Below, in pieces: positions 32,822-61,272 of a stretch of 64,000 nucleotides of DNA (position 1 is its first letter; every line of letters begins with the position of its first letter). The notes beneath the pieces were generated by a model. The model did no database searches and was not told the DNA's origin. It was given only the letters and a program-made list of their open reading frames with translations. The stretch is from assembly GCA_964369115.1 (NCBI GenBank), contig CAYJED010000001.1, positions 67,732 to 131,731 of the forward strand, read 5' to 3'. Source of the DNA: an uncultured Candidatus Saccharibacteria bacterium (GTDB lineage: Bacteria; Patescibacteriota; Minisyncoccia; Phycocordibacterales; UBA5272). The translations under genes were made by a program, and so were the position numbers.

Positions 32822-32893
32822 TCCGCGATAGCTCAGCGGTAGAGCAGCGCGCTGTTAACGCGTTGGTCGTAGGTTCGATCCCTACTCGCGGAG
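32822..32893 (+). tRNA. tRNA-Asn (anticodon GTT)
   Basis: Cloverleaf read by hand: acceptor tccgcga/tcgcgga, D arm gctc-agcggta-gagc, anticodon stem gcgcg/cgcgt with loop ctGTTaa, T arm gtagg-ttcgatc-cctac, discriminator G. No encoded CCA. Confidence 0.85.
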
Positions 32894-32895
32894 CA
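32877..32895 (+). repeat. 19-nt tRNA 3'-end core (gatccctactcgcggagca), copy 1 of a direct repeat (att-like)
   Basis: Identical 19-mers recur at 46886-46904 and 48309-48327. Degenerate copies lie at 49547-49560 and about 46727-46745. Confidence 0.8.
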
Positions 32896-34570
32896 TAGTA
32901 GAAAAAACATCTCTTTTAAGGGATGTTTTTTCATTTAACCCTTGTGTATCAAAGTTTAATTTAGGTTCGAACTCTGGAAAATTCACTCTCATACCTTTTA
33001 CTCCATCAATGAGTGCTTGTGTTGCTTTTGACCAAGTAATACAAAGGTTTTCTTCGTCCCAAACTAGGTTCGAACCCAGTGCAAAAAGCACCTTCCTTTT
33101 GTGATCTAATGACCCATTTTTAAGCACTTCTGCAATTGATTCAGAGAAACCGACAATCTCGTTTAACTTAGACATCCAGTCAATATCATCTGCATTTTTC
33201 TTCTTTGAGACATGCTTGTAACGCTGTTCAATATCAGCAAGGTCGGCATTGTATTCGTCGTTAGTTATTTGTTGATTACGAAGCATTGCACGTGCGTGAA
33301 GTTTCTCTTCGTTGTACTTCTTTTTATCTTCTTCAATATTTATTTCTGCAGTAAGAGCATCCTGAAAATCACCATCTTTAAGTTGATATAAATTCGCCTT
33401 TGACCAATCAGCAAGATCAGAGGATATAGGAAAGTCAGAAATCGCAACAGAAATCAGTTCCTTAGTTATGTTTTTCTCAGTAATAGACTTATACGACTGA
33501 CGAGACTTCTTCTTACGATTGTCGTAGTGATATGAATACTCAAGAAGTTTAGGAGAAACCATTTGAGGTATATCAGTGCCACATGTAGGACAAATGGTAG
33601 ACAGAGTACAAGAAAACTTACGCTTACAGTCACATATGACCTGTAATTTAACGTCCTGAGCCAAAACATGTCCCAGTGGAGACCTTACGAGACCAGAATA
33701 CAGAGTCTTGTGATCCTGAACTTTAGGAAGCGAATGCTGACCAAGTAGACGTAGAATCTTCACATGTTCAGACTCGGTTATAATACGAGGTAGAGATTTG
33801 TGAAGTTCGTAACGCTCACCACCATAAAAGAAGAAACCTGCATAAATAGGATCCTTGAGAATCTCATAGATACGAGACCTCATGATAGGCATACCACCAC
33901 TTCTACCTCGTGCGACAGTAGTAAGGCCAAGTTCACCAACTGCGTAGTCGTACAACTTACCACCAGTAAAACCTCCTTCAAGAAACTTTCTTAATAAAAG
34001 ATTTATTTTATTCAAACGAACCTTATCAACCTTCCATTTACGATTACCTTTCTCTTCAGACTTATCATTAAGAAAACCAAGAGTAGCAACACCGTGAGGA
34101 AAACCCAAAGATGCTTTCTTAGTCTGACCTCTTTTAACATTCACAGAAAGATCACGAACGAATTGATTAGCAGAACCAAACTCAACCGACATCAAAATAG
34201 TGTTCTCACTACTGTGATAAATCTTGTTGGGAGTAATAATGCACTTAATGGTCCCACGCTGTAGCATGTCCATTATAACCCCACCATCAATCATGTTACG
34301 GGCCAAGCGATCAATTTTCCAACATACAATGCTGTCATATTTACCATTCTTAATATCTTTAATCATTTGAGTAAAAACAGGTCTCTTGTTGGACATCTTA
34401 CCTGACTTAGACTCTTTGAGGACATCAAGAATCTTAATACCAAACTGACTCGCTATCTTTTTATTTTCATCAACTTGAGAGTCGATAGATAACATTTGCC
34501 TTTCTTCTGACTCAGAAGACTTACGATTGTAATTCACTGCTTTCAACTCACCATAATTTATTTCATACAT
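32882..34570 (-). CDS. Large serine recombinase (integrase)
   Basis: N-terminal resolvase catalytic domain (AVNYNRKSSESEERQMLSIDSQ; WKIDRLARN), recombinase domain, Cys-rich zinc ribbon (CDCKRKFSC...CPTCG) and coiled coil. The last codons overlap the tRNA 3' end. Confidence 0.85.
   Translation of the reverse strand: MYEINYGELKAVNYNRKSSESEERQMLSIDSQVDENKKIASQFGIKILDVLKESKSGKMSNKRPVFTQMIKDIKNGKYDSIVCWKIDRLARNMIDGGVIMDMLQRGTIKCIITPNKIYHSSENTILMSVEFGSANQFVRDLSVNVKRGQTKKASLGFPHGVATLGFLNDKSEEKGNRKWKVDKVRLNKINLLLRKFLEGGFTGGKLYDYAVGELGLTTVARGRSGGMPIMRSRIYEILKDPIYAGFFFYGGERYELHKSLPRIITESEHVKILRLLGQHSLPKVQDHKTLYSGLVRSPLGHVLAQDVKLQVICDCKRKFSCTLSTICPTCGTDIPQMVSPKLLEYSYHYDNRKKKSRQSYKSITEKNITKELISVAISDFPISSDLADWSKANLYQLKDGDFQDALTAEINIEEDKKKYNEEKLHARAMLRNQQITNDEYNADLADIEQRYKHVSKKKNADDIDWMSKLNEIVGFSESIAEVLKNGSLDHKRKVLFALGSNLVWDEENLCITWSKATQALIDGVKGMRVNFPEFEPKLNFDTQGLNEKTSLKRDVFSTMLRE
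32902..32931 (+). terminator. Terminator hairpin downstream of the tRNA
   Basis: aaaaaacatc / gatgtttttt perfect 10-bp stem with a 10-nt loop. Confidence 0.45.
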
Positions 34571-40575: not shown

Positions 40576-40579
40576 TTAT

Positions 40580-41782: not shown

Positions 41783-41783
41783 T

Positions 41784-43070: not shown

Positions 43071-43074
43071 ATAT

Positions 43075-43707: not shown

Positions 43708-43708
43708 T

Positions 43709-47500: not shown

Positions 47501-48115
47501 ATGATGGAAAGCAAAGGCACAAAAATTAAAGGCCCTCTCTGTAGGGTTGTCTACGGTTCTCTTGCTATCATGGTCATTTCAGTTATTTACAAGATATTTT
47601 TTGATCCAAACTGGCAAGTTCTTTTCTCTGCATCTGTCGCATACGCAAGTTTATTTAATAGGACTATTACTCAACATCTCCCGAAACTCTTCTCTAAGAG
47701 TGATGGTAAAGTTGCCACGACTGAATATTTAATTGATAAAGTTGTACTAGAAAGTATAAATGTATGTAACGCAAATGGTTTATTCTTTAATCAGGCAGTA
47801 TTGGTGTCTGAAGATTCATCACAAATAATTACAATCCCGAACGAGAGAATAAACGATATAGACTCATATCTTAATGAGTTAAAATTAAGCGATTTTAAAC
47901 ATAACAACATTGCTATCGCTATGGCAGGCTCATATGATTGGAAACAATTCTTGTGGAGTGGTGTAAAGCATTACGAGGCATTAATAATTGAAGTCTACTT
48001 ATCTAAAGGAGTGAAAAAGTATAGTTTTTGCCAAACTATTGATAATGATTCGGGCTTATACAAGCCAAGTGAACGAGGGTTAATATATCAAGGTTCTGTA
48101 GCAATCAAAGGGTAA
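47501..48115 (+). CDS. Hypothetical protein (204 aa)
   Basis: ORF with an N-terminal hydrophobic segment. No family recognised. Weak SD. Confidence 0.4.
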   Translation: MMESKGTKIKGPLCRVVYGSLAIMVISVIYKIFFDPNWQVLFSASVAYASLFNRTITQHLPKLFSKSDGKVATTEYLIDKVVLESINVCNANGLFFNQAVLVSEDSSQIITIPNERINDIDSYLNELKLSDFKHNNIAIAMAGSYDWKQFLWSGVKHYEALIIEVYLSKGVKKYSFCQTIDNDSGLYKPSERGLIYQGSVAIKG

Positions 48116-48219
48116 GTGAAAGATTTGCTCCAATCAAAAGTTCTGAACCTGTGTACCGTTCGGAGCATTAATACAAAAAGCCACAAGTTCATTCTTGTGG
48201 CTTTTTGTATTAACTTTTC

Positions 48220-48327
48220 AACGAAGCAAGTGACCTACTTCACTTGCATGTAAGATCGAATACGGGGTCGAGGTTCTACTTCGAGCAAAGCGAGGTAGAA
48301 TCGTGACCGATCCCTACTCGCGGAGCA
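48220..48327 (+). repeat. Structured arm plus 19-nt tRNA-3' core, copy B
   Basis: gcaagtga-cctact-tcacttgc hairpin, ctacttcg...cgaggtag hairpin, ggggtcg...cgatccc pairing, ending in gatccctactcgcggagca (48309-48327). Confidence 0.7.
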
Positions 48328-48330
48328 CTA

Positions 48331-48359
48331 TTGACAAAAGCATTATATATTGTTATACT
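48331..48359 (+). promoter_or_regulatory. Consensus sigma70-type promoter (paralogue of 46909-46937)
   Basis: TTGACA (48331-48336), 17 nt, TATACT (48354-48359). The downstream 5'UTR is similar to the one at 46938-46967. Confidence 0.5.
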
Positions 48360-48395
48360 GCTTTTGTTCTTTCATCAGTATACAGGAGTTACAAA

Positions 48396-48665
48396 ATGTT
48401 TCGTTTCAGTTCGAAGGTCAAACCGCCTTACAACAACAGAAAAGAACATGCAAAATGGAAGAAAAAGTTCGCTTTCTTTCCGGTCGTTATCAGCAGAACA
48501 GGAACCACAGAAACTAAGGTCCTATTTTGCTTCTACGAGGAGCGTGTCTACTGCGACCCCATGGGTGCTTCTGTGTATGGTGGTGATACGGTAACCGAAC
48601 GTCGTCTGCCGGGTTCAACAGAAGTCTGTGAAGTTGATCGACATGATGGTGACCCATTGCTCTAA
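48396..48665 (+). CDS. Small hypothetical protein (about 89 aa)
   Basis: AGGAG SD 7 nt upstream of ATG 48396. Lys-rich N-terminus, C-terminal Cys residues. Confidence 0.45.
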   Translation: MFRFSSKVKPPYNNRKEHAKWKKKFAFFPVVISRTGTTETKVLFCFYEERVYCDPMGASVYGGDTVTERRLPGSTEVCEVDRHDGDPLL

Positions 48666-48702
48666 CCGCCAAGCAAGAAACTGCTTCGGCGGTTTCTTGT
48701 TT
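48664..48702 (+). terminator. Terminator hairpin (paralogous to 47184-47220)
   Basis: accgccaagca-agaaac-tgcttcggcgg followed by tttcttgtttt. Confidence 0.5.
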
Positions 48703-48810
48703 TACACTTCATCCCTCAAACTTTTCATATTCATCATCCCCACCCTCATACCCGAGTACTCCCTCATCAGTTCGGTAAAGAAGGTTTGTGGGGAGCACAT
48801 AAAATCTTAA

Positions 48811-48839
48811 GTCCACCATTTCGGTGGACTTTTGATTTT
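48811..48839 (+). terminator. Hairpin plus T-run
   Basis: gtccacc-atttc-ggtggac followed by ttttgatttt. Confidence 0.4.
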
Positions 48840-48897
48840 AGTGCTCAGTGAGAGTAAAGCCAACTGCTTGGCTTTTCTTTTTGATATACTTATATAA

Positions 48898-49429
48898 TGA
48901 ATACTTACGTGGCTCTACTCCGTGGAATAAATGTAGGAGGTAATAACAAAATTGAAATGACAAAACTCAAAGTCCTTTTTGAGTCACTCGGCTACACGAA
49001 TGTTGTTACTTACATCAATTCAGGCAACGTAATATTTGAGACAAGAAAAAAGATGTCAGTCGGCTGACAAGTGAAATTGAAAAAGGTATAAAAAAGAAAT
49101 TCAAGCTAGATATTCCAGTTGTACTACGTACACAACAAAGTATTGAGAAAGTGTGTAAGAACATCCCACCAGATTGGGTAAATGATAAAGATAATAAAAC
49201 TGATGTAATGTTTCTGTGTGATGAGTTTGCAAGTAAGAAAACTCTAAAAATAATTTCTACTAACCCAAAAATTGATTCGTTACTGTATGTTGATGGGGCT
49301 ATTGTTTGGCATCTAAAAAAGAAGGATTACGAAAAGAGTAAAATGAATGACATTATCGGTACAGAAGTATACAAAAATATGACTATACGAAACATCAATA
49401 CTGTTCGGAAACTTGCAACATTGATGTAA
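48898..49429 (+). pseudogene. DUF1697-family gene disrupted by a -1 frameshift in an A6 run
   Basis: N-terminal part MNTYVALLRGINVGGNNKIEMTKLKVLFESLGYTNVVTYINSGNVIFETRKK stops at TGA 49065-49067. The downstream frame (track ORF 49151..49429, open from about 49063) continues LTSEIEKGIKKKFKLDIPVVLRTQQSIEK... One extra A in aaaaaa (49046-49051) would fuse them. Confidence 0.7.
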
Positions 49430-49440
49430 AAGAAACTATC

Positions 49441-49560
49441 TCTTTTTCTGTACTCACCCAGTCCAAAGTTCTGAACTCGTCCACTAGAGGGATCGAATAC
49501 GGGGTCGAGATTATACTTCGAGCGAAGCGAGGTAGAATCATGACCCGACCCCTACTCGTA
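49441..49560 (+). repeat. Structured arm plus degenerate tRNA-3' core, copy C
   Basis: gggatcgaatacggggtcgag...cgaggtagaatcatgacccgacccctactcgta. ggggtcg/cgacccc pairing. The core is degenerate at 3 positions. Confidence 0.55.
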
Positions 49561-49976
49561 GAAATGAGCGATCATTGTCCTTACAAACCATTCAAGCTGA
49601 TGCTTGCCTCGATCTGTAAGCACCTCGGCGAGTTTGTCGATCTGTGGATGCAACAGAAGATTGTCATGCTCCAAAAAACTGTCGCAACGCATTGCCGTAG
49701 CAACCCGATGTGAAGAAACTCGCCAAGCATTGCAAGAATCTCAATCATGCCTTGGTCAGCGAAGAGGACATCATGATCCCCGATGAAAAGTAACCAATAC
49801 TGTGTGGTTAGATTTCACATTTAAATAAGACTTTTGGTCAAGATTTGTCTTGTGACATAAGAGGCTCGGTACATGATGTCATAAACCATAAGACCAAAGG
49901 AGTAGCTTTAGTCTATAGTCATCCAAATACCAGTGAACACAACCCGGGCCCCGTTTCGACGGGTGCTTTTTCTTTT

Positions 49977-50228
49977 TTAGCGATGTGTGCACCCAGCCCA
50001 ACAGCAAGGTCTCTTTTTTCCTTGTAATAAATCATTGTGCAATCTTTCTATTCGACCCTTCCTCGTATCTTCTTTCTTTGCGGAGTCTATAAAACAGAGC
50101 CATTCATTTCTAGCAAGTGGAGTAATGTTTTCCCAGGAAGTGTACATTTTTTCAGAAGAGAGAAGTCTTTCTTTTACATCTGTTGGAATTTTGTGAACAA
50201 CTCCATCCGAAAGAGGTCTTTTTATCAT
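49977..50228 (-). CDS. YdeI/OmpD-associated family-like small protein (83 aa)
   Basis: The C-terminal NEWLCFIDSAKKEDTRKGRIERLHNDLLQGKK resembles the conserved YdeI C-terminal motif (..W...AK..eTR.rRi...). Only the C-terminal domain is present. Confidence 0.45.
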   Translation of the reverse strand: MIKRPLSDGVVHKIPTDVKERLLSSEKMYTSWENITPLARNEWLCFIDSAKKEDTRKGRIERLHNDLLQGKKRPCCWAGCTHR

Positions 50229-50291
50229 ACTGTAAGTGTAACAGATTCTTGATATACTTTTTGTATTATTAGTTAATCATATAAATAACCT

Positions 50292-51038
50292 ATGCTTTAT
50301 TTTCTACTTAGTGCACTCGTTGTTATTATTGTAAGTATTCGTCAAATAAATCAGTATGAACGTGGAGTTAAGTTTACTCTCGGAAAGTTTTCTTCTGTAA
50401 TGGAACCAGGATGGAGGATTGTCGTTCCTGTCTTTCAGTCGTATCAAAAAATTGATATTCGCATTAAGGCGGTAGATGTTCCAGACCAGAATGCGATCAC
50501 GAAAGATAATGTTTCCGTAAAAGTAAATGCAGTTATTTACTACAAGGTTAGCGACGCACAAAAATCAATCATTGAAGTAGAAGATTTTAGATATGCTATT
50601 TCGCAATATGCCCAGACCACAATGAGAAACATTGTAGGAGAAGTAACGCTCGACGAGCTTCTTTCAAGTCGAGATAAAATTGCAGATAGAATCAGAGAAA
50701 TTGTTGATAAGGAGACAGATGCCTGGGGTCTTGTGGTTCAGAATGTTGAACTTAAAGATGTAAGTCTTCCTCCTGATATGGAAAGAACCATTGGTAAACA
50801 AGCGGAAGCTGAAAGAGAAAAAAGGGCTGTAATCATTAATTCTGAAGGAGAATTGGCAGCATCGGAAAATCTTGCAAAAGCAGCGGAGATGCTTGCAAGT
50901 ACTCCTGGAGCACTCCACCTTCGAACTTTGCAGTCTATCAATGATATGTCTTCTGATCAGTCAAATACAGTGGTGTACATGGTTCCAGTGGAAGCTCTTA
51001 AAGCTCTTGAAGGTTTTACAAAACTTGGCAAAGCCTAA
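50292..51038 (+). CDS. SPFH/band-7 (stomatin-like) protein
   Basis: N-terminal TM, SPFH domain (ERGVKFTLGKF...AITKDNVSVKVNAVIYYKV), then an EA-rich coiled coil. Confidence 0.85.
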   Translation: MLYFLLSALVVIIVSIRQINQYERGVKFTLGKFSSVMEPGWRIVVPVFQSYQKIDIRIKAVDVPDQNAITKDNVSVKVNAVIYYKVSDAQKSIIEVEDFRYAISQYAQTTMRNIVGEVTLDELLSSRDKIADRIREIVDKETDAWGLVVQNVELKDVSLPPDMERTIGKQAEAEREKRAVIINSEGELAASENLAKAAEMLASTPGALHLRTLQSINDMSSDQSNTVVYMVPVEALKALEGFTKLGKA

Positions 51039-51220
51039 AAAAATTAACATAAAAACAATCGCACGATCGTGTGTTTGTTTTACTTTGTAGGTATACTTAA
51101 ACATAATGATAAAAATTGTTGCTGTAATAATGATTGTGCCAATTCTAATTATTATAAGCGCGCTTTCTATGTCTTACAATGCAAAAAAACAAAATGCAGG
51201 AAAGGATACAACAAGCTCTC

Positions 51221-51955
51221 TTAAGGTTTTAGAGAAGGAAGGTGTGGTTCAATAAGTTTTGAAAACCAAAGTTTGTATCCTTTATCGTTAGGATGTGTCT
51301 TGTCAGTTGCGTAAAGTCCTCCCTCAGAAAGAAGCCCTTCATCTTTTTCATCCTGGTATAGTGAAATAAAAGTTACAGAATGAGTATTGCTTATTTCTTT
51401 TGCTATAGCTTGAAATTTCTGAGAGCGTTTTTTATATATATAAGATAAAGGAAAAGGGAAAATCGGAGAATTTCCAACATTAGGGGGTGTAATGTAGACA
51501 AGTTTTTCCGCACGATGTTTTGCTTCTTTAAATAAATCAGTAAGACATCTTTTAATGTGAGTAAAACTTCGCATAGTAACGATATCCATCCCTCCACAAA
51601 AAATAATAATAAGATTGTACTTATTTGTGTCTTCTTTCAGAATACGAGAACATTCAGAAATTCCAATAGCATCTTTTCCTTGAAGTGTAAAAGAATCGGT
51701 GCGATAGTGTTGTTTAATTTGTCTCCCTAGTGTTGTTTCTTGAGACCTTGCGCCAACACCACGAACAATACTGTCACCTATAAAAAGTATTGAAATTGAA
51801 GTAGTTTTGGAAAATCTCGGATACTCCTCTTTTTGTAAAAGTGTTGTTAATTTACTTTCTTTTTTTGTTTTAAGTGAAAAATAAGTTACCCATACTGTTA
51901 CCCATAGAACATAGGTAAAAATATAAATTATTAAAAAAATAATTACTTGTTCCAT
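51221..51955 (-). CDS. SGNH/GDSL-family hydrolase, membrane-anchored
   Basis: N-terminal TM, block I GDSIVRG, and a C-terminal DxxH-like segment (DKTHPND). Confidence 0.7.
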   Translation of the reverse strand: MEQVIIFLIIYIFTYVLWVTVWVTYFSLKTKKESKLTTLLQKEEYPRFSKTTSISILFIGDSIVRGVGARSQETTLGRQIKQHYRTDSFTLQGKDAIGISECSRILKEDTNKYNLIIIFCGGMDIVTMRSFTHIKRCLTDLFKEAKHRAEKLVYITPPNVGNSPIFPFPLSYIYKKRSQKFQAIAKEISNTHSVTFISLYQDEKDEGLLSEGGLYATDKTHPNDKGYKLWFSKLIEPHLPSLKP

Positions 51956-52542
51956 GACTGTATAGCTGTTAAGAAAATGTTTTTAGTGAATGTTTTCTTC
52001 TTCATGTCAAAATAAAGAGCTACAGCTGGAGCGCTCACTTTTGGATAATGCTTTTCTTTTCCAAAAACGGTAAAGCCTAACATCGTATAGAAACGAACGT
52101 GTTTTGGGTTAACTGAGATACAAAGATAACGCACGTTCTCTTCTGTGGCTTCTTTAAAAACTTTACCAAAAAGAGGTACTTGAGCAAAAAGTGACTCTTT
52201 AGCACTCATTACACTACATACGATATCTTTATCGATCGCAAGTTGAACAACTTCAGCAACTAACCCCCCTTGTCTCAATGGAATAATTTCTTCTTTGTAT
52301 AACTCCTCCATCGGAAGCGAATCATCATTTTTACTTAGAATAAGACTCACGGTTCCATACATTATCTCTTTGTGTAGTGCAATAAAACGAAAAGCGTTTT
52401 CATTTTCAAAAAAAGAAACTATTGATGACGCTTCGATCTCTTTAATATATCCTTCCCCTTCATATACTTTTGTTACAAGTGTTGCTGCTTGTTTTTTTTC
52501 ATTCAAGGTTACCGCCTGTCTACAAAAAAATGATTCAAACAT
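51943..52542 (-). CDS. GNAT-fold acyltransferase (possible acyl-ACP-dependent N-acyltransferase)
   Basis: 199 aa with an LRQGGLVAEVVQLAI motif (GNAT motif A-like). Lies directly downstream of an ACP gene on the same strand. Confidence 0.45.
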   Translation of the reverse strand: MFESFFCRQAVTLNEKKQAATLVTKVYEGEGYIKEIEASSIVSFFENENAFRFIALHKEIMYGTVSLILSKNDDSLPMEELYKEEIIPLRQGGLVAEVVQLAIDKDIVCSVMSAKESLFAQVPLFGKVFKEATEENVRYLCISVNPKHVRFYTMLGFTVFGKEKHYPKVSAPAVALYFDMKKKTFTKNIFLTAIQSWNK

Positions 52543-52547
52543 ATAAA

Positions 52548-52844
52548 CTATTGATAATTCTTAGTAAGAAAAAAATGTGAAAGAAAATTAGGATTTTTCT
52601 CAAATTTTTTCATTGCAAGATCAACTATGTCGCCAACTGTATCAAGCAATACAACATCCTCGTAATCAATTTCATGATCAAGCTCCTTTTCAAAAGTAAC
52701 TAAAAGTTCAAAAAGAATAATGGAATCACCGTGTAGCTGTAAGATTTTTGTCGAAGTGTCAAGATTTTCGACATTTGGAATAACTGAACGAATTATTGAT
52801 AAAACTTTTTCCTCAGTAAACTTTTTTAATTGAGATGCTTCCAT
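52548..52844 (-). CDS. Acyl carrier protein-like
   Basis: 98 aa acidic protein with LHGDSIILFELLVTFEKEL (GxDS(L/I) phosphopantetheine-attachment-like motif). Confidence 0.6.
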   Translation of the reverse strand: MEASQLKKFTEEKVLSIIRSVIPNVENLDTSTKILQLHGDSIILFELLVTFEKELDHEIDYEDVVLLDTVGDIVDLAMKKFEKNPNFLSHFFLTKNYQ

Positions 52845-52867
52845 GAAATATATCTTAAAGTGTAGGC

Positions 52868-53398
52868 TTATTTTTTTGGAATTGCAACAAAACTAACCAC
52901 ATAACCTTCTATTTTATAGGTTTTTATAAAGGCAGGGACAGGTTTTCCGCTCCTTTCTATCGTTATGCATTCTCTCCTAAAGAGTGTCTTTTTGGGGTGA
53001 ATAAGCAAACCTTCACCGTACGACTTCCCTACCGCTTCTTTTACACTCCAATAGAGAGTAGCGAGCGCTTCTTTATCTTCATTATTTTCTATGTCCAAGA
53101 CTTCTTCGTTCACACAAAATTTTTTAGAAAGAGATAGGGTTTTTATATCTATCTTTTCTATATCTATACCAAGATTAAAGTTACCTTTTGAAAATGCTAT
53201 ACATATATATTCGTCTTTATGAGAAATGCTTAACGAATAGATATTTTTTTTTACTGATAGAAATGGCTTATTATTTTTATTTTTTACGATATAGCAATCT
53301 TTCAAATCAGGATGCTTTTTTGTTAGATAGTTTTGAATTAAAGAATGAGAATAGATGTTCTTATCTTTCAGACGTAGTACGTAAATATAACACTTCAT
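52868..53398 (-). CDS. 4'-phosphopantetheinyl transferase (Sfp/AcpS superfamily)
   Basis: NKPFLS...SISHKDEYICIAFSKGNFNLGIDIEKI and WSVKEAVGK match PPTase motifs (GKPxL, ..SHS.., GxDxE, WxxKEA). Confidence 0.6.
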   Translation of the reverse strand: MKCYIYVLRLKDKNIYSHSLIQNYLTKKHPDLKDCYIVKNKNNKPFLSVKKNIYSLSISHKDEYICIAFSKGNFNLGIDIEKIDIKTLSLSKKFCVNEEVLDIENNEDKEALATLYWSVKEAVGKSYGEGLLIHPKKTLFRRECITIERSGKPVPAFIKTYKIEGYVVSFVAIPKK

Positions 53399-53492
53399 TA
53401 AGTAAAGTATACACTTCTGTGGTTTGTTGTATGAAATTTTTTATACACATGAAATATTTACTTTTTTTAATAACCTGACCTATACTCTGAGT

Positions 53493-54212
53493 ATGCTCAC
53501 AGTGCATAATCTCAAAAAATATTTTGGAACTAAAAAAGCCGTAGATGGCGTAAGTTTTTCTATTAAATCAGGTGAAATATTTTCTCTTATTGGGCCAAAC
53601 AGTGCCGGTAAATCAACAATCGTTAAAACTATTATCGGTCTTCTTGAACCAACAAATGGGTCGGTAACTATAGATGGTCATGATGTTATTAAGAAACCAG
53701 AGGTTACAAAGGCTTTAGTTGGATATATTCCAGATGAACCTTCTGTGTGGAGCTATATGACAGGAGAAGAGTTTTTACACCTCACACAGGCGCTTTTCGG
53801 TATTAAAGAAAGTGAAAGAAAGAAAGAAATCCCTAAGCTTCTCGAAACCTTTTCTTTGACAGGAATTGAAAAGCAGTCATTTGATGAATATTCAAGAGGA
53901 AATAAGCAAAAGTTTAGTATTCTCTCCGCCCTCTCTCATTCCCCTAAACTTCTTGTGGTGGATGAACCGATTGTAGGTCTTGATCCAATAAGTGCTGATA
54001 TTGCAAAAAAGCTTTTTAAGGAATATGCGGAGCAAGGAGGTGCTGTGCTTCTCGTAACTCATACACTTTCAGTGGCTGAAGAAATTTCTACACACATTGG
54101 TTTTCTTAAAAATGGACAACTTGTTGCAACTGGCACCCTTGAAGGGTTGCGTAAAACAGCTGAAGTAGAAGATGATGCTTCTCTTGAAACTATTTATAAG
54201 ACGCTTGCCTAA
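53493..54212 (+). CDS. ABC transporter ATP-binding protein
   Basis: Walker A GPNSAGKST, signature LSGGNKQKF-like, Walker B LLVVDEP. Start chosen at MLTVHNLKKYFG. Confidence 0.85.
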   Translation: MLTVHNLKKYFGTKKAVDGVSFSIKSGEIFSLIGPNSAGKSTIVKTIIGLLEPTNGSVTIDGHDVIKKPEVTKALVGYIPDEPSVWSYMTGEEFLHLTQALFGIKESERKKEIPKLLETFSLTGIEKQSFDEYSRGNKQKFSILSALSHSPKLLVVDEPIVGLDPISADIAKKLFKEYAEQGGAVLLVTHTLSVAEEISTHIGFLKNGQLVATGTLEGLRKTAEVEDDASLETIYKTLA

Positions 54213-54225
54213 TGTACTCTTATAT

Positions 54226-55896
54226 ATGTTCTGTCAACTTTTAGCATTTGAACTACAGAGAATTGGTAAATTCTTTAAAGAGAGAACTCTTGCAAAGACT
54301 ATTACTTCTCTTTTATTTGTTCTTGTTTTCTTTTTTGTTGGCTCTACGTTGTATTTCTTTTTCTGGGCAGCTTTTAAGTATATTTCTATTGAAGCGGTTA
54401 TAGATATACGACATGCACTTACATTATTTATGTATGAAGCGTTACTCCTAGCTCTTCTTTTTTTAGGAATTGTAAGTGCAGCAATTTCGCTTTTGTTTAA
54501 TTTATTTAAAGGTGGATCTAATACGTGGATTATTTCTTCACCTTCATATAATGTGTTTCCAAAACTCCTCTTTGTTCGAAGTGTTGCGACGTCCTTTGTC
54601 CCTCTCTTTGTTGTATTTCTTCCAGCAATGCTTGCTTTTGTTAAAGTTAATAAAATCTCCCTTGTTGCTCTTCCTTCTATAATTCTTAGCTTGCTTCTTT
54701 TTATTGTTACGGTGAACGCTTTAACATTTATCTTTATAATTACGCTTAGCACCTTATATTACAAGGTTTTGAAGCATTTCTACCTCACCACAACACTTCC
54801 TGGTATTGTGACTCTCTTTGTTCTTTTTGTGATCGGTGTCACTGTTACTGTCTGGAAGTCTGTTGCCTCACTTGATTTTGTGACTCTCTTTAAGGCAGAC
54901 ACCTATACTGATATCTTGCCTACGGTTATGGTAAGTAAAGAATTCTTTTTCCTTCCAACACATCCACTCGCTCTTCATATAACAAGCTGGCAAACAGGTA
55001 ACACACAAAGCATGGTGCTTAGCTTCTTAACGCTCGCTCTTCTTACTGTGACAAGTCTCTTCCTTATGTTAAAAATTTCTCCACGTTTTTTCCAGTTATG
55101 GAAAGTCTTGCAAGAAGGACGAGGTCGTAGTACTAAAGTAAATTCTTCGCTTTTTTCTTCATATACATTTAGCGGAAGTCAGAATAGTATTTTATTTAAA
55201 AAAGAAATGCTTGTGTTTAGTCGTGATATGAGGGGGTTGCTTTGGTTCCTTTTCCTTCTTTTTATTTGGGTGCTTCAAATAGGTGCAAATCTTGTTATTG
55301 GAAATAATATAGGGAGGTATCAGCCAGATCTTATAAGTAAAATTGCGATACTACAGACCATACAGTTTATTATCGCTATTTACTTTATTAGCTCCTTTAC
55401 ACTTCGTTTCCCCTTCCCTTCCTTTAGTGTTGAGAAAAGAACCGGATGGATATTTGGAACCGCTCCACTTAATATGCGTACCATTTTCCTTGGGAAATAT
55501 ATCTTTTACACTACTTTTTTTGTAGCAATAGGATTTCTCATGAGTAACTTAAATAGTATTGTTCTTTCTCTTACGGCCATACAGGCAACTGCTGCTACAA
55601 CGCTTCTTGTTGTAAGTACACTATTTATTGTTACTGTGGGGCTTTGTGCAGGTTTTATTTGGAAGAGTAAAGAAAGTGATGACCCAGAAACTGTCACCAC
55701 AAGTATGCCAGGTCTTTTCTTTACAGCTTTCTCTCTTTTGTACGGGGCAGTTGGCTCTTACACTCTTTATCTTTTTACAAAAGATGGAGCAGTCTCACAC
55801 ATTTCATTCTTTCTCTTTGGAAGTCTCACTCTTGGATCTGCTCTTCTTCTCTTTGTAATAAGAAAAATTACAAAAGTAAAATTTTTGGAAGCCTAA
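54226..55896 (+). CDS. ABC transporter permease-like polytopic membrane protein
   Basis: More than 12 hydrophobic segments. Immediately downstream of the ATPase gene. No specific family recognised. Confidence 0.55.
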   Translation: MFCQLLAFELQRIGKFFKERTLAKTITSLLFVLVFFFVGSTLYFFFWAAFKYISIEAVIDIRHALTLFMYEALLLALLFLGIVSAAISLLFNLFKGGSNTWIISSPSYNVFPKLLFVRSVATSFVPLFVVFLPAMLAFVKVNKISLVALPSIILSLLLFIVTVNALTFIFIITLSTLYYKVLKHFYLTTTLPGIVTLFVLFVIGVTVTVWKSVASLDFVTLFKADTYTDILPTVMVSKEFFFLPTHPLALHITSWQTGNTQSMVLSFLTLALLTVTSLFLMLKISPRFFQLWKVLQEGRGRSTKVNSSLFSSYTFSGSQNSILFKKEMLVFSRDMRGLLWFLFLLFIWVLQIGANLVIGNNIGRYQPDLISKIAILQTIQFIIAIYFISSFTLRFPFPSFSVEKRTGWIFGTAPLNMRTIFLGKYIFYTTFFVAIGFLMSNLNSIVLSLTAIQATAATTLLVVSTLFIVTVGLCAGFIWKSKESDDPETVTTSMPGLFFTAFSLLYGAVGSYTLYLFTKDGAVSHISFFLFGSLTLGSALLLFVIRKITKVKFLEA

Positions 55897-55951: not shown

Positions 55952-56425
55952 ATGAAATCGTCTGATGAAGCTCACAGTGTGTGCAAAAAAGACTCCTTTG
56001 ATGGGAGTCTTATGCATACCGTACATACGCTTTATTTTCTTGTACAAAAAAGACTTCAAGAAAAACTTTCGTCTTCCCCTATTTCTTTTTCACAGTTTCT
56101 TGTTCTTGCGGGTTTTTCTTGTTATGGAGATACGCCTGTAAAACAGGTGTCTCTTGCTGAAAGCTTGCTCCTTACTGAAGCAACATTAAGTAGACACATT
56201 AAAGTTTTAAGTGAAAAAGGCCTTCTCATTAAAAGAAAAGATGAAGACAATAAAAAGCTTTCGATGCTTAAATTAAGCGAAAAAGGAAAACGTATTTTTG
56301 AAAAAACTCTTAGTATTGTTAATAAAGAGCTGGAACACTACTTCTCACCTCTTTCACAAGAAGAAAAAGAAAAAGTGATACTGCTTTTCTCCACCACAAT
56401 AATTTTTCTCCATAAGAAAGAATGA
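55952..56425 (+). CDS. MarR-family transcriptional regulator
   Basis: Winged HTH region LAESLLLTEATLSRHIKVLSEKGLLIKRKDEDNKKLSMLKLSEKG. Confidence 0.75.
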   Translation: MKSSDEAHSVCKKDSFDGSLMHTVHTLYFLVQKRLQEKLSSSPISFSQFLVLAGFSCYGDTPVKQVSLAESLLLTEATLSRHIKVLSEKGLLIKRKDEDNKKLSMLKLSEKGKRIFEKTLSIVNKELEHYFSPLSQEEKEKVILLFSTTIIFLHKKE

Positions 56426-58125
56426 TCCGGTTATGGAAGATTGTGCTGCATTACTTACTAATTACTACCACCATGAATCAACACTTTAAAAAAAGTATTA
56501 CTCTTATTAAAGAAATTTATACTAGGCTTAAAAAAATTATTCACGAATATAGTGTCTGGTACAAAGAACAGTCACGTAAAAAGCAAAGTATCATCGTTCT
56601 ACTTGCTTTAGTTGTGTTTATCATTATTTTAAAAATGTTATTTGGTGGATCTTCAGAAGTAAAAGAAGAAGAAAAAACTGTTCGAGAGGTAGAAGTTGCG
56701 TCACTTACATCTCTTTCTGGTAATGAAAATAGTCTTCTACTTGTTGGTAATGTTACTTCTCTTAGTGAAGCGACAATTCGTGCAGAAACAAGTGGTCGCC
56801 TTACTCGGGTATATAGAAAGCTTGGTGACACTGTAGTTGCTGGTCAAACTATTGCTGAGTTTGAAAACAGTGGTGAACGCGCTTCAGTGCTTCAAGCGGA
56901 AGGTGCATACGAACAAGTAAAAGCAGGAAGAGATATCGCTCTCCTTAATAGTGGTCAAGCGGGAAGCAGTCTCTCAGAAATAAAAAACCAAGCACTGAGT
57001 GCTATCTCGGGCTCATACAGTACGCTTGATGATGCTATACGAGGAAAGACTGATCAGGCATACTCTGACCCAACATTTGAACAGCTAAAGCTTCTTCTTT
57101 TTGTTCCTGACGCAACACTCTCTATCTCTCTTGAATCAAAACGTAAAGCAATTGAGATGCTTCTTAAAAAGCGTGCAGAAAAAAATAAAACTCTCACCGA
57201 ATCAAGCGATTTTGTGTCTGAGCTTACCTTAGTACAAAATGAACTTGAGACTGTTAAAGTATACCTTGATGATCTTTTTAGTGCATATAGTAAAGCTCTT
57301 CCAAATAATAATTTTACACAAAGTACGTTAGATACTAATAAGCTTAGTGTTCAAGCTGCTCGACAAGCAGTTATTGGAAGTCTTAATTCTATTGCTTCTA
57401 CTCGTCTATCTCTCTCTCAAAGCATTACAGCAAGTAAGGTTGCTGGAAGCGGTCAAACAGAAAAATCTGGATCTATACTTTCTGCTGAAGCTCAAGTAAA
57501 ACAAGCTTTGGGAGCATATAATGCAGCACTTTCTCGTCTTGAAAAAACAATTATTCGAAGCCCGATTACAGGAACACTTAATTCTCTTAGTATTCAAACA
57601 GGTGATTATGTAAGTAGTTTTACACAAGTTGCAGTTGTCTCTAATAACGGATCACTTGAAATTGTTTCTTTTGTTACAGAAGATGACGCTCGTCGTATTA
57701 AGCCATTTAATGAAGTGCTTATTAATGGTACCTATCCTGGTGTTGTGTCGCGTATTGCGTCAGCACTCGATCCTGTTACAAAGAAAATAGAAGTTCGTGT
57801 TTCTCTTAAAGAAAGAACTTCTACGCTTGTAAACGGCCAGTCAGTGCGAGTAAAAATTATTGGTTCAAAAAATGAAAACATAGCAGGTATTAAAAAAGAT
57901 ACCCCTCTTATTATTCCAATTGCTGCTCTTAAGCTTACCCCACGTGGAGCAAATGTATTTACAGTAAGCACCACAAGCACTCTTATTGCTGTTCCAGTTA
58001 AAGAAGGTGCTATTTTGGGTGACCAAATTCAAATCCTTGAAGGACTGGCTGGTGATGAAATTCTTGTAAAAGATGCCCGCGGCCTTAAGGAAGGAATGCA
58101 GGTTTCTGTTAAGGAAGAAAAATAA
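56422..58125 (+). CDS. Efflux RND periplasmic adaptor (membrane fusion protein, HlyD family)
   Basis: N-terminal TM, coiled-coil hairpin region, lipoyl/beta-barrel motifs (RSPITGTLNSLSIQTGDYVS). Overlaps the marR stop and precedes the RND pump. Confidence 0.8.
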   Translation: MIRLWKIVLHYLLITTTMNQHFKKSITLIKEIYTRLKKIIHEYSVWYKEQSRKKQSIIVLLALVVFIIILKMLFGGSSEVKEEEKTVREVEVASLTSLSGNENSLLLVGNVTSLSEATIRAETSGRLTRVYRKLGDTVVAGQTIAEFENSGERASVLQAEGAYEQVKAGRDIALLNSGQAGSSLSEIKNQALSAISGSYSTLDDAIRGKTDQAYSDPTFEQLKLLLFVPDATLSISLESKRKAIEMLLKKRAEKNKTLTESSDFVSELTLVQNELETVKVYLDDLFSAYSKALPNNNFTQSTLDTNKLSVQAARQAVIGSLNSIASTRLSLSQSITASKVAGSGQTEKSGSILSAEAQVKQALGAYNAALSRLEKTIIRSPITGTLNSLSIQTGDYVSSFTQVAVVSNNGSLEIVSFVTEDDARRIKPFNEVLINGTYPGVVSRIASALDPVTKKIEVRVSLKERTSTLVNGQSVRVKIIGSKNENIAGIKKDTPLIIPIAALKLTPRGANVFTVSTTSTLIAVPVKEGAILGDQIQILEGLAGDEILVKDARGLKEGMQVSVKEEK

Positions 58126-58140: not shown

Positions 58141-61100
58141 ATGCAATCATTTTGGATTTTCTTTCTTAAAAAAAGAGCCTTTACCTATATGGTTATGGTG
58201 TCACTTATTGTGACTGGTTTTTATTCACTTCTTGCTATTCCAAAAGAGTCTGCACCTGAAGTGATTGTCCCTGTTGGAATTGTGACCACAGTTCTTCGTG
58301 GTGGAAGTGGTGAAGATGTTGAAAAGCTTGTTACAAATAAACTTGAACAAGAAATTATAAATGCAGAAAATATCGATAAAGTTACTTCATCTTCTCAGGA
58401 AGGTGTGTCGGTTATTACAGCTCAATTTAATGCATCAGCTGATATAGATGAGTCAATTCAAGCACTTAAAGACGCGGTCGATAAAGCAAAAGGTGAGCTT
58501 CCAGCTGACGCTGAAGAACCTTTTGTAACAAAGATTAATTTCTCAGAACAACCAATTCTTGTTCTTTCTATTTCCTCAGATATTTCACCAAAAGGGCTTA
58601 CTATTTTAGGTGATGATCTTGAAAAAGAACTAAAGAAAGTTAAAGGAGCAAGCGATGTTTCTATCTCTGGGGTACGTAAACGTGAAGCGCAGGTAGTTAT
58701 TAGAAAAGACAAGCTTGCAAATTATGGCCTGTCCCTTAATCAAGTAATTGGGGCTCTTCAGTCTGCAAATGCATCCTTCCCTATCGGAAACATTACTGTA
58801 AGCAACATTGATTACCCTATTAAGTTTTCTGGATCAATTGAGGATCCGATAGAAATACCTGAAATAAGTCTTACTGCACAAAATGGAACACTTGTATACT
58901 TGCGTGATATTGCATTTATTACAGATGGTCTTGAAGCACCTAAAACCTTTTCTCGCATTTCAGTCGATTCAGAACCTTCGGAAAACGCTCTCACCTTAAA
59001 CATTTTTAAAAAATCAGGAAGCGATATTACAGAAGTTGGAAAAGAAGTTAAGGCAAAAATAGAAGAACTTAAAGGTTCACTTCTTCTTGGGGCTAATGTT
59101 GTTGTTTCTTTTGATGGAGCAAGTGATGTAGAAAAAGATTTAAAGAAACTTACTCGTGTTGGCATGGAAACAGTGCTTCTTGTGATGCTTGTACTTTTCC
59201 TTACTATTGGGTGGCGTGAATCTATTGTAGCCGGACTCTCTATTCCGCTCTCATTTGTAATTGCATTTATTGGGCTTTATATTTCTGGAAATACAATTAA
59301 CTTCATTTCGCTCTTCTCACTTATTTTAGCTATTGGAATTCTTGTTGATTCGGGAATTGTGGTAGCTGAAGCAATTCATACGCGATTTAAAAAATACGGA
59401 GATATTGAAGAGGCAGCAAGAGCTTCTCTTAAGGAGTATGCTTGGCCTCTTATTGCAGGAACAATGACTACGGTAGCCGTGTTTGCTCCCCTCTTTTTCC
59501 TTTCTGGTGTTACGGGGCAATTTATTTCTTCTATTCCATTTACAATTATCTTTGTTCTCATCGCTTCAATTTTCGTAGCTCTTGGTATGGTGCCTCTCTT
59601 AGCAATTCTCTTAAGTAAAAGAGAAGAAAAAGAAAGTAAATTTACAGAGCTCCAGGAGCACTGGTTTATGAAATCACAAATATGGTACAAGACATTTTTG
59701 AGTGGAATGCTTAAAAGTAAAAAGAAACAGGATCGCTTTTTAAACAGTCTTGCTGTCGGGTTTATTATCTCCATACTTCTCCCTGTAACAGGACTTCTTA
59801 AAGTACAGTTCTTCCCTCAGGATGATCAGTCGTTTGTGTATGTAAGTATTGAGAAGCCTCAAGGTACACCTCTTACAGAAACAGATAAATCTGTTCGTGA
59901 AGTAGAGGAGCTTCTTTATGAAGAAGAGTATGTCACTTCTTTTGTAACTACTGTTGGAGCATCATCTGCATTCTCTGGAAACGGTTCAAGTGGTGGAGGT
60001 AAGCTTGCAAATATTACTGTTCTACTTACTGATGAGCGAGAAAAAACCTCTTCAGAGATTATGGATGATTTAAGAAAGAAGTTATCTGTAGTAAAAAGTG
60101 CTACGGTAAAAGTTGAGCAAGGAAACAGTGGACCACCAACTGGTGCACCGGTGGTTATCACCTTTAAAGGGGATGACATGGAAGCGCTTTCTCTCCTTGC
60201 CGATCAGGCAGAAAGAATACTCACAAGTATTCCTCTTGCGCGAGATGTGGAAACATCTCTTCGTGATAATGGTACTCAGTTTGAGCTCATTATCGACAGA
60301 GCAAAAGCGTCTCAGTATGGAATTACCGCTGCTCAAGTTGCACAAACTCTTCGTATTGCGGTTTCTGGAAGTATTGCTACTACCATTAAAAAACAAGGTG
60401 AAGACATCGATATCTTGGTTAAAACAGATCTTAATCCAAACTTCATAAATCCAGAAGATACCATCAAGACAACAATTGATGCGCTTAACCAGCTCACTAT
60501 TGAAACCCCTTCTGGGTCTGTGCTCCTTGGGTCTCTTGTAAAAGTAAAACTTTCAGAAAGTAGAGCTGTTATAGAGCATGAGGAAGGTAAACGTATCGCA
60601 CGAGTAACTTCTCAGCTTTCTCTTGGTGCAACCGCAATTGAAGTTGTTCAAGAGTTCAAGAAAAGAGAAAAAGAGCTCACTATCCCGTCCGGAGTTGAAA
60701 TTAAGTATGGTGGAGAAAATGAAGAAGTAGAAAAGACATTTAAAGAAATGTTCCTTGCTCTCATTGTCGGAATGGTGGGCATGCTTGCAATTCTTGTACT
60801 TGAATTTAATTCATTTAGATTCTCATTCTACCTCCTCTTTACTATTCCTCTCTCACTTATTGGAGTGCTCAGCGGTCTTACTATCACTGGTCAGGCGTTG
60901 TCATTTTCTTCCATGCTCGGACTTATTGCTCTTGCTGGTGTGATTATTAATCACGCTATTATTCTTCTCGACTCAATACTGCGTCGCCTTGAAGAAGAGA
61001 AAACAAAAGACGTGCATGCTGATCTTCATGATGTGATTGTGGAATCATCGGCAATTCGACTTCGTCCAATTGCGCTTACTACAATTACTACTGTTGTAGG

Positions 61101-61272
61101 TATGATTCCGCTCGCTGGAGTATCAGCACTATGGGGACCACTTGCATTTGCTATTATGTTTGGACTAACGTTTGCAATGATTCTTACTCTTGTACTTATC
61201 CCTATGTTTTTCTACAGGTACCCAGGTAAATATAAGCATTTGAAACAACCAGAAGATCTTACTCAATTCTAA
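58141..61272 (+). CDS. RND efflux transporter (AcrB/HAE1-like permease)
   Basis: 1043 aa, 12 TM helices with two large periplasmic loops, and the typical N-terminal MxxFFIxRPxFAxVLxL-like start (FFLKKRAFTYMVMVSLIVTGF). Confidence 0.9.
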   Translation: MQSFWIFFLKKRAFTYMVMVSLIVTGFYSLLAIPKESAPEVIVPVGIVTTVLRGGSGEDVEKLVTNKLEQEIINAENIDKVTSSSQEGVSVITAQFNASADIDESIQALKDAVDKAKGELPADAEEPFVTKINFSEQPILVLSISSDISPKGLTILGDDLEKELKKVKGASDVSISGVRKREAQVVIRKDKLANYGLSLNQVIGALQSANASFPIGNITVSNIDYPIKFSGSIEDPIEIPEISLTAQNGTLVYLRDIAFITDGLEAPKTFSRISVDSEPSENALTLNIFKKSGSDITEVGKEVKAKIEELKGSLLLGANVVVSFDGASDVEKDLKKLTRVGMETVLLVMLVLFLTIGWRESIVAGLSIPLSFVIAFIGLYISGNTINFISLFSLILAIGILVDSGIVVAEAIHTRFKKYGDIEEAARASLKEYAWPLIAGTMTTVAVFAPLFFLSGVTGQFISSIPFTIIFVLIASIFVALGMVPLLAILLSKREEKESKFTELQEHWFMKSQIWYKTFLSGMLKSKKKQDRFLNSLAVGFIISILLPVTGLLKVQFFPQDDQSFVYVSIEKPQGTPLTETDKSVREVEELLYEEEYVTSFVTTVGASSAFSGNGSSGGGKLANITVLLTDEREKTSSEIMDDLRKKLSVVKSATVKVEQGNSGPPTGAPVVITFKGDDMEALSLLADQAERILTSIPLARDVETSLRDNGTQFELIIDRAKASQYGITAAQVAQTLRIAVSGSIATTIKKQGEDIDILVKTDLNPNFINPEDTIKTTIDALNQLTIETPSGSVLLGSLVKVKLSESRAVIEHEEGKRIARVTSQLSLGATAIEVVQEFKKREKELTIPSGVEIKYGGENEEVEKTFKEMFLALIVGMVGMLAILVLEFNSFRFSFYLLFTIPLSLIGVLSGLTITGQALSFSSMLGLIALAGVIINHAIILLDSILRRLEEEKTKDVHADLHDVIVESSAIRLRPIALTTITTVVGMIPLAGVSALWGPLAFAIMFGLTFAMILTLVLIPMFFYRYPGKYKHLKQPEDLTQF

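Follow-up and report, generated by a model that had tools for sequence, protein, structure and literature searches.

A compact operon for a FeeM-family N-acyl amino acid synthase with its own carrier protein in an uncultured Saccharibacteria bacterium, a probable reduced form of a larger Patescibacteria cluster

A 64,000-nucleotide stretch of DNA from an uncultured Candidatus Saccharibacteria bacterium (contig CAYJED010000001.1 of assembly GCA_964369115.1; hereafter the window, with positions counted from its first letter) carries a compact operon of four genes. These encode a phosphopantetheinyl transferase (PPTase), a stand-alone acyl carrier protein (ACP), a synthase of N-acyl amino acids (NAS) and a membrane-anchored enzyme of the SGNH/GDSL fold (here GDSL). 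The NAS belongs to the FeeM family, as established by profile, structure and motif comparisons. Judged from homology and gene neighbourhood, the operon is quite probably a reduced version of a gene cluster of the Patescibacteria, serving the acyl-ACP-dependent synthesis of a plain N-acyl amino acid.

An earlier reading of this DNA, made from the sequence only, had described four packed same-strand genes, and all four open reading frames (ORFs) were found on the minus strand over the same span. The spacers measure 23 nt between the PPTase and ACP genes and 5 nt between the ACP and NAS genes; of the previously quoted range of 3-23 nt, the upper value stands and the smallest spacer is 5 nt, not 3. 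The NAS and GDSL genes overlap by 13 nt (ATGGAACAAGTAA), the GDSL ATG lying within the final NAS codons. This overlap geometry is shared with the related locus L077, and an overlap of about 10 nt between the NAS and GDSL matches is seen in L084, a relative that is 77% identical to the window. All four products score above the Pfam gathering thresholds, and the identical four-gene order occurs on independent metagenome contigs. Since the arrangement also recurs in relatives of just 30-45% identity, the operon is not a chance juxtaposition. In the proposed model, GDSL is probably translationally coupled to the synthase.

Assignment of the third gene product, a 199-aa protein, is supported by several concordant lines of evidence. 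It matches PF21926 with 102.7 bits (cut-off 27; E 2.2e-29) over profile positions 1-156 of 158. A profile built from alignment A1, which comprises the window NAS and nine homologues, retrieves FeeM (2g0b) from the PDB at E 4e-41, with the next PDB match at E 0.22. The AlphaFold (AF2) model of the protein, with a predicted local distance difference test score (pLDDT) of 86.3, matches FeeM 2g0b with E 1.5e-16, a TM-score of 0.81-0.85 and 35-38% identity. Ordinary acetyltransferases of the GCN5-related N-acetyltransferase (GNAT) type trail FeeM as structural matches (E 5e-8), and LasI and MesI are only distant ones (E about 1e-6 to 3e-7). At the residue level, the motifs PMDxxY, AEVVQ and NPKHxxFY are common to the window NAS and FeeM. 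Glu97 of the window protein (AEVVQLA), invariant in alignments A1 and A4, aligns with the conserved Glu of FeeM AEVVQFA (Glu95, the proposed general base). Furthermore, a neighbour-joining tree of NAS proteins, rough and built without bootstraps, groups the window NAS with FeeM and an ACP-linked clade, and places the NAS linked to ThiF and nitroreductase genes on the other side. Identity as an N-acyl-homoserine lactone (AHL) synthase or a member of the OlsB family was rejected, because no Pfam match to Autoind_synth (LuxI family, PF00765) or Acetyltransf_5/OlsB (PF13444) was obtained at E <= 1. The hidden Markov model (HMM) classification that the sequence-only reading had proposed as a check thus gives the FeeM family PF21926 rather than another GNAT family. 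The combination it had named as telling against the locus, an unrelated acetyltransferase class together with an ACP lacking the conserved serine, was not found: the protein falls in PF21926 and the serine is present as Ser41.

The PPTase matches Pfam ACPS PF01648 (42.2 bits, E 9.6e-11), and its best PDB matches are to Bacillus subtilis Sfp (1qr0/4mrt, E 3e-7), covering Sfp residues 62-203 only. The motifs KP45, SISH60, GID79IE81 and W117..K120E121...K125 are conserved in 10 homologues; among these, GID79IE81 and W117SVK120E121AVGK125, which correspond to the Mg/CoA-binding motifs G-x-D-x-E and W-x-x-K-E-x-x-x-K, can be aligned with Sfp. Measured against the Sfp class, in which a monomer of about 220-240 aa is built from two pseudo-symmetric halves (AcpS has about 120 aa), the window protein is short: it has 176 aa against 191-238 aa in its relatives, with a shorter N-terminus, and a weak AASDHPPT_N match (E 0.01) stays under the cut-off. 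The earlier call as Sfp-type agrees with the Pfam and Sfp matches; because the protein is shorter than its relatives, the term holds at the motif level, with the N-terminal half reduced. The ACP matches Pfam PP-binding PF00550 (27.9 bits, cut-off 20.8; E 2.8e-6) and ACP entries of the PDB at E values down to 1e-4. Its Ser41, the attachment serine within the GDSI motif (GDS41I) on which the earlier description of a stand-alone ACP was based, is retained, aligns with the DSL serine of solved ACPs including 2ehs, and belongs to a D-S pair that is invariant across 10 cluster-linked homologues. From these features, the PPTase is expected to convert the apo-ACP to its holo form.

The fourth product matches Lipase_GDSL_2 (54.9 bits, E 2e-14), and its AF2 model (pLDDT 88.8) has a long helix at the N-terminus (residues 2-41) and, after it, an SGNH fold; the transmembrane helix and fold agree with the membrane-anchored SGNH/GDSL hydrolase seen in the sequence-only reading. 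Blocks I, II and V are intact, with S62, G66/G68, D218 and H221 invariant and a Ser-Asp-His triad in place. The block III Asn of the oxyanion hole is replaced, the motif reading GGM123D instead of GGND. GGMD or GGID is found in 12 of the 17 cluster-linked members with a recognisable block III motif; among full-length relatives in the wider family, GGND/GAND accounts for 87 and GGMD/GGID for 36 of 144. The change from Asn to Met or Ile therefore marks the sub-branch nearest to the window GDSL, not the whole family, and was rejected as a family hallmark. Foldseek relates the model to generic SGNH esterases, to TesA (1u8u) and to the acyltransferase SsfX3 (3skv), with carbohydrate and sialate O-acetylesterases also among the matches. 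The protein is only 13-20% identical to solved SGNH proteins, and the structural neighbours do not separate hydrolase from transferase. In the window protein, Lys and Arg are found only after the transmembrane helix, and across 133 family members the mean count of Lys plus Arg is 0.7 before this helix and 3.0 after it. By the positive-inside rule, these residues after the helix point to an orientation with the N-terminus out and the C-terminus in, so the catalytic domain is predicted to face the cytoplasm, where the ACP sits. One homologue is annotated in one source as a lysophospholipase L1-like esterase. A claim that the subfamily is rare was dropped: a k-mer search had returned about 10 clusters, and an exhaustive HMM search returned 688 representatives at E <= 1e-30. 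As a separate observation, a 49-aa ORF with one transmembrane helix (MIKIVAVIMIVPILIIISALSMSYNAKKQNAGKDTTSSLKVLEKEGVVQ; 51106-51255, plus strand) lies downstream of a Band_7/SPFH gene (50292..51038). It runs towards the GDSL gene, sharing about 35 nt with the 3' end of that gene, and the gene calls of the related contigs L001, L003, L004, L005 and L006 include it.

The genomic context of related NAS genes places the operon within a larger assembly. The closest NAS homologues (36-42% identity) come from metagenome-assembled genomes of Candidatus Paceibacterota, Gracilibacteria, Doudnabacteria, Moraniibacteriota and the 'Patescibacteria group'. Going by these homologues, the host is a probable member of the Patescibacteria/CPR that reads its genes with the standard genetic code. 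In a first survey, by tblastn over 68 genome loci carrying FeeM-family genes, homologues of the PPTase, ACP and GDSL were found only beside the Patescibacteria-type NAS (L007-L012, L023 and L043). None of the three was nearby in about 60 NAS loci of Desulfobacterota, Omnitrophota and other phyla, which typically carried ThiF-family and nitroreductase-family genes right after the NAS (Pfam-confirmed), or neither. GDSL stands beside the NAS in 6 of 8 Patescibacteria-type loci against 0 of 60 others (Fisher p = 2.6e-7). A metagenome scan added 14 further Patescibacteria-type loci, and none of the 66 other NAS loci it covered had a PPTase, ACP, GDSL, PlsC or VTT gene. With both surveys combined, PPTase, ACP and GDSL are absent from about 126 other NAS loci. 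A dedicated ACP and PPTase are thus confined to the Patescibacteria-type group among the retrieved FeeM-family genes. The sequence-only reading, which had called such a pairing the hallmark of NAS loci, overstated the case, as most retrieved FeeM-family genes stand alone or with ThiF and nitroreductase genes.

Within the Patescibacteria-type group, PPTase, ACP, NAS and GDSL recur jointly in Paceibacterota, Gracilibacteria, Doudnabacteria, Moraniibacteriota and metagenome contigs. The most constant block is ThiF-PlsC-PPTase-ACP-NAS, in which a PlsC-family gene with the HX4D motif adjoins PPTase-ACP-NAS. Frequent extras are GDSL (one gene or two), a nitroreductase, VTT/DedA and an exporter composed of a membrane fusion protein (MFP), FtsX and an ATP-binding cassette (ABC) protein. 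For instance, L007 reads ThiF-PlsC-PPTase-ACP-NAS-GDSL and L009 (Gracilibacteria) reads PlsC-PPTase-ACP-NAS-GDSL. Larger versions are found in L077 (VTT, NAS-GDSL, PyrG, ACP-NAS-GDSL-ThiF-PlsC-PPTase-MFP-FtsX-ABC, nitroreductase, VTT), L011 (two NAS, two GDSL, ThiF, PlsC, nitroreductase, methyltransferase), L012 (Moraniibacteriota; GDSL x2, VTT, FtsX, ABC, MFP, NAS, PlsC, PPTase, ACP) and L023 (nitroreductase, GDSL, FtsX, ABC, MFP, NAS, PlsC, ThiF, PPTase, ACP). GDSL also adjoins the cluster in the metagenome loci L084, L091, L096 and L131. In a reverse test starting from GDSL homologues, two of three look-ups reached clusters with NAS, PPTase, PlsC, ThiF and exporter genes (L081 and L083), with an ACP in L083 and a nitroreductase in L081. 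ACP and PPTase always accompany the NAS in the retrieved loci, a regularity that is biased because nearly all loci were seeded by NAS searches. In the window, tblastn at E <= 1e-2 found no homologue of ThiF, nitroreductase, PlsC or VTT; where ThiF and nitroreductase genes are present in relatives, they always lie within a few kb of the NAS. The window is the only complete locus of the Patescibacteria type seen without PlsC. Because ThiF, nitroreductase and PlsC are all missing, the window operon is regarded as a reduced variant, PPTase-ACP-NAS-GDSL.

Three of the related loci have peculiarities of their own. The L009 cluster can be read only in genetic code 25 (UGA = Gly), as code 11 makes its NAS, PPTase and GDSL genes look broken. 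L023, labelled 'uncultured Bdellovibrionales', is syntenic with the Moraniibacteriota locus L012, and their FtsX permeases share 51% identity; mis-binning of the contig or horizontal transfer of the cluster may account for this. In L079/L080 (4741-9081), PlsC-PPTase-(314-aa unknown)-ACP-NAS and a ThiF remnant form an insertion between secY and adk, where the ribosomal-protein operon ends, which is an unusual site for accessory genes. The 314-aa protein between PPTase and ACP was considered as a GDSL counterpart and rejected (hhalign probability 0.05-0.1%, no Pfam family).

From these family assignments and conserved motifs, a pathway can be proposed. The Sfp-like PPTase would load phosphopantetheine onto Ser41 of the ACP, and a fatty acyl chain would then be carried as acyl-S-ACP. 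This chain is presumably scavenged, since no fatty-acid synthesis (FAS) genes are visible in the window and bacteria of the Candidate Phyla Radiation (CPR) have been reported to lack them. The FeeM-type synthase would use it to acylate a free amino acid at the alpha-amino group, giving an N-acyl amino acid and regenerating holo-ACP. At the membrane surface, the tethered SGNH enzyme would probably handle an acyl (thio)ester, most likely by mobilising acyl groups from scavenged glycerolipids or lysolipids, or by hydrolysing acyl-ACP or lysolipid by-products. The amphiphilic product would probably be handed to neighbouring MFP-dependent transporters. Because ThiF, nitroreductase and PlsC are missing, the pathway should stop at a single-chain N-acyl amino acid, and the product should be neither an acyl-oxazolone nor a two-chain aminolipid. 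We infer that the dedicated ACP is the acyl donor, since it co-occurs with PPTase and NAS and the tree puts the NAS beside FeeM. The central idea of the sequence-only reading, an acyl-ACP-dependent NAS locus, likewise gains support from the FeeM class, the adjoining ACP and PPTase, and the tree. FeeM reportedly forms N-acyl amino acids with the ACP FeeL, and FeeM and TyzA prefer tyrosine or phenylalanine. More generally, acyl-ACP is the reported substrate from which FeeM-type NAS enzymes and AHL synthases make an amide with an amino acid (PMC11631085).

The origin of the acyl group is of particular interest in this setting. Patescibacteria reportedly have no fatty-acid synthesis and recycle lipids (PMC12455944, citing Probst 2020). 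The absence of visible FAS genes from the window, put forward in the sequence-only reading, holds among its annotated genes. A motif-level search of the window and 14 related loci gave no AMP-binding signature, and no adenylating enzyme appears in the Pfam listings of the window and related loci. The loader of the ACP may be encoded elsewhere in the genome. Alternatively, the PPTase may transfer acyl-phosphopantetheine from acyl-CoA, a reaction that Sfp carries out in vitro. A more daring and rather improbable option is ATP-free charging, in which the SGNH enzyme would take acyl groups directly from glycerolipids scavenged from the host and pass them to the thiol of the ACP. A PlsC-family enzyme running in reverse could also charge the ACP in fuller clusters, and the NAS, by forming the amide irreversibly, would draw the reaction onward. 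If true, this would be a new route feeding an ACP-dependent pathway, its lysolipid by-product would fit the reported lysolipid enrichment of CPR bacteria, and it would explain both the clusters without an adenylating enzyme and the replacement of the hydrolytic oxyanion-hole Asn in the sub-branch.

Several observations weigh against the proposed acyl-ACP-dependent pathway or parts of it. TyzA, another NAS of the FeeM fold, uses acyl-CoA (PMC10404671), and ACP dependence in the window is deduced from the tree and from gene linkage. Beyond the 64 kb, the genome could still contain FAS genes or encode an acyl-ACP synthetase, ThiF, nitroreductase or PlsC. GDSL is not an obligatory member, as none lies within 8 kb of the cluster in L085-L088, L090, L095, L043 and L079, and L082 combines two GDSL genes with VTT and MFP-FtsX-ABC, with no NAS within 7 kb. 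With GDSL present in L082 in the absence of NAS, and missing from some NAS clusters, its role may be general, in acyl mobilisation or clean-up at the membrane, and not a step unique to the pathway. The link to an exporter is one of adjacency, and distant relatives carry another type, FtsX/MacB with ABC.

These points can be developed into rival explanations. The dissociation of GDSL from NAS is taken furthest if ACP, PPTase and GDSL form a general lipid-salvage toolkit feeding membrane phospholipids, with the NAS as a side branch and GDSL as a lysophospholipase or thioesterase of bulk lipid metabolism instead of a NAS partner. The large size of the GDSL family (688 representatives), the NAS-free combination of GDSL with VTT/DedA and MFP-FtsX-ABC in L082, the PlsC-family acyltransferases that accompany ACP and PPTase in nearly all relatives, the TesA-like folds among the structural matches and the thought that Patescibacteria recycle host lipids (PMC12455944) all fit such a toolkit. 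In the window, however, GDSL overlaps the NAS gene by 13 nt and PlsC is missing, and ACP and PPTase are always found with the NAS in the retrieved loci, a NAS-seeded and so biased sample; this explanation is considered unlikely. Somewhat less credit is given to membership in an acyl-oxazolone (Tyz/Oxz-like) pathway whose nitroreductase-family oxidase and ThiF-like cyclase are encoded elsewhere, so that the NAS would make an N-acyl aromatic amino acid that is then desaturated and cyclised. Most relatives do carry ThiF beside PlsC-PPTase-ACP-NAS, often with a nitroreductase, and the triad of NAS, ThiF and nitroreductase has been experimentally tied to tyrazolone synthesis (PMC10404671, PMC12856293). 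Against this, the 64-kb window has no homologue of either enzyme, while in relatives both lie within a few kb of the NAS, and the ThiF remnant in L079 suggests that the module has been lost in some lineages.

Membrane-anchored SGNH-like proteins are also known to work with extracellular carrier-protein systems, such as DltD in the Dlt pathway. An extracytoplasmic SGNH protein acting on the cell envelope in the manner of esterases or transferases of the DltD or PatB type, and tied to the NAS by position only, would accommodate the carbohydrate and sialate O-acetylesterases among the structural matches. This reading is nevertheless very hard to sustain, as the positive-inside rule puts the catalytic domain in the cytoplasm (K+R 0.7 vs 3.0 in 133 members), no MBOAT/DltB-like partner occurs in any locus, and the co-localisation of GDSL and NAS is significant (p = 2.6e-7), with overlapping genes. 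The acyl-ACP-dependent synthesis of a plain N-acyl amino acid by a reduced cluster is accordingly the explanation we favour.

Comparison with characterised systems helps to delimit the operon. Its closest counterpart is FeeM/FeeL from the fee cluster of soil environmental DNA (PDB 2g0b), with which it has in common the fold and motifs of the NAS and an ACP encoded beside it. Unlike FeeM/FeeL, the window operon adds its own Sfp-type PPTase and a membrane-anchored SGNH enzyme, and the other tailoring genes of the fee cluster are absent from it; its host is also most likely a FAS-lacking member of the Patescibacteria. TyzABC/TrzAS of Mycobacterium tuberculosis and OxzAB of Pseudoalteromonas rubra also use a FeeM-fold NAS as the first enzyme, and relatives of the window NAS adjoin a ThiF cyclase and a nitroreductase-family desaturase as in Tyz (PMC10404671). 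The TyzA-TyzB-TyzC architecture was experimentally shown to make acyl-oxazolones (PMC10404671; also PMC12856293). The window does not represent a Tyz/Oxz cluster, because ThiF and nitroreductase are absent from it. In addition, TyzA uses acyl-CoA and has no ACP or PPTase, and the SGNH, PlsC, VTT and MacB-type exporter components of the relatives' cluster are not described for Tyz or Oxz. In the OlsB/OlsA and GlsB/GlsA systems, an N-acyltransferase using acyl-ACP is followed by a PlsC-family O-acyltransferase (PMC11631085), an order of functions that recalls the relatives. The window N-acyltransferase, however, is of the FeeM family PF21926, not PF13444, and PlsC is missing, so the operon does not encode an OlsB/OlsA pathway; moreover, both systems need 3-hydroxyacyl-ACP from type II fatty-acid synthesis, which is not expected in a FAS-less organism. 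Finally, GDSL resembles Escherichia coli TesA (thioesterase I/lysophospholipase L1) and SsfX3 in its SGNH fold and in the Ser-Asp-His residues of blocks I and V, and differs from them in its membrane anchor, predicted cytoplasmic side, block III Met and coupling to a NAS.

The chemistry of NAS enzymes is already known. As far as could be found, the association with ACP, PPTase and an SGNH enzyme, the Patescibacteria super-cluster and the FAS-less setting have not been described, and no link between N-acyl amino acid synthases and Patescibacteria was found in the literature searched. Patescibacteria/CPR make up a large share of bacterial diversity and are thought to be without lipid biosynthesis, living off host lipids. 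A conserved, presumably ACP-dependent lipoamino-acid/oxazolone cluster with a PPTase, acyltransferases, a putative flippase and an exporter would represent an investment in specialised acyl-amino-acid lipids and their export; such lipids could be membrane components, surfactants or host-interface signals. The four-gene version in the window is the smallest natural form seen, and thus a convenient construct for heterologous expression and lipidomics. It also poses a sharp, testable question: how an ACP becomes acylated in a FAS-less cell with no acyl-ACP synthetase in the cluster.

The positions of the operon genes and of the neighbouring transport and regulatory genes are collected in Table 1.

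Table 1. Genes of the operon and features next to it (positions in the window).
Feature	Position	Strand	Length	Assignment
PPTase gene	53398..52868	minus	176 aa	short Sfp-type 4'-phosphopantetheinyl transferase
ACP gene	52844..52548	minus	98 aa	stand-alone acyl carrier protein
NAS gene	52542..51943	minus	199 aa	FeeM-family N-acyl amino acid synthase, GNAT-like fold
GDSL gene	51955..51221	minus	244 aa	membrane-anchored SGNH/GDSL-fold enzyme, N-terminal transmembrane helix
Divergent intergenic region, PPTase gene / ABC ATPase gene	53399..53492	.		likely shared control region
ABC ATPase and PF16949 ABC_tran_2 membrane protein (54172-55896)	53493..55896	+		Pfam
MarR-family regulator	55952..56425	+		Pfam MarR
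HlyD-type membrane fusion protein (MFP)	56422..58125	+		Pfam HlyD_3
RND transporter	58141..61272	+		Pfam ACR_tran

Upstream of the PPTase gene, the divergent region contains a promoter-like TTCATA-18-TATACT at 53435..53406, ending 7 nt before the PPTase ATG. Counts from the promoter and terminator scans are not above shuffle expectation, including those of promoter-like sites in this region (15 vs 10.8 +/- 3.0), and the promoter is therefore treated as a lead only. With the -10 box TATACT 7 nt before the ATG and no obvious Shine-Dalgarno sequence for any of the four genes, the first gene may be translated from a leaderless mRNA. On the other side of this region, the call of the ABC ATPase gene starts at 53493 and its longest ORF at 53424. 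Adjacency of the ABC ATPase/PF16949 pair to the operon is conserved in the strain-level contigs L001-L006, and the pair is a possible exporter for the product. The MarR, MFP and RND set may be associated with the operon for regulation and export, and the MFP of the window has homologues within related NAS clusters (29% over 402 aa in L012, E 2e-17; also L023). Tripartite-type MFP/RND pumps are unexpected if the CPR cell has no outer membrane.

Beyond these genes, the window also encodes DnaK/DnaJ, tRNA synthetases, MraY/FtsW/MurG, MreB and a type I restriction-modification (R-M) system. The R-M locus (HsdM, DUF2130, HsdS and a 993-aa HsdR) lies with a Fic protein at 37423-46690. A defence-system reading of the operon was set aside, as PADLOC gave no match for any of the four proteins, though this island lies nearby. 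In L001 (13837-20345), a 455-aa reverse transcriptase (RVT_1) separates HsdS fragments from an HsdR that is itself split, which suggests a strain-specific retroelement insertion. A tRNA-Asn gene (32822-32894) abuts or overlaps the 3' end of a gene for a 562-aa serine recombinase (32882..34570, minus strand; Pfam Resolvase). Such an arrangement resembles the boundary of an integrated element, which may extend through the Fic and type I R-M genes to about 50 kb and would end just short of the operon.

Next to the operon, the interval 48100-50250 holds short broken ORFs only, for example the split gene 48897..49067 / 49151..49429. Beyond the OmdA gene, related strains diverge completely: in L003 a DUF3800 protein is encoded at this place, and in L002 and L005 the genes are those for a PG_binding_1 protein, for AAA_15 and AAA_25 ATPases and for a second large serine recombinase. 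A hypervariable region therefore adjoins the operon. Farther away, a chitinase-like protein of glycoside hydrolase family 18 has its gene (9843-10982) among housekeeping genes.

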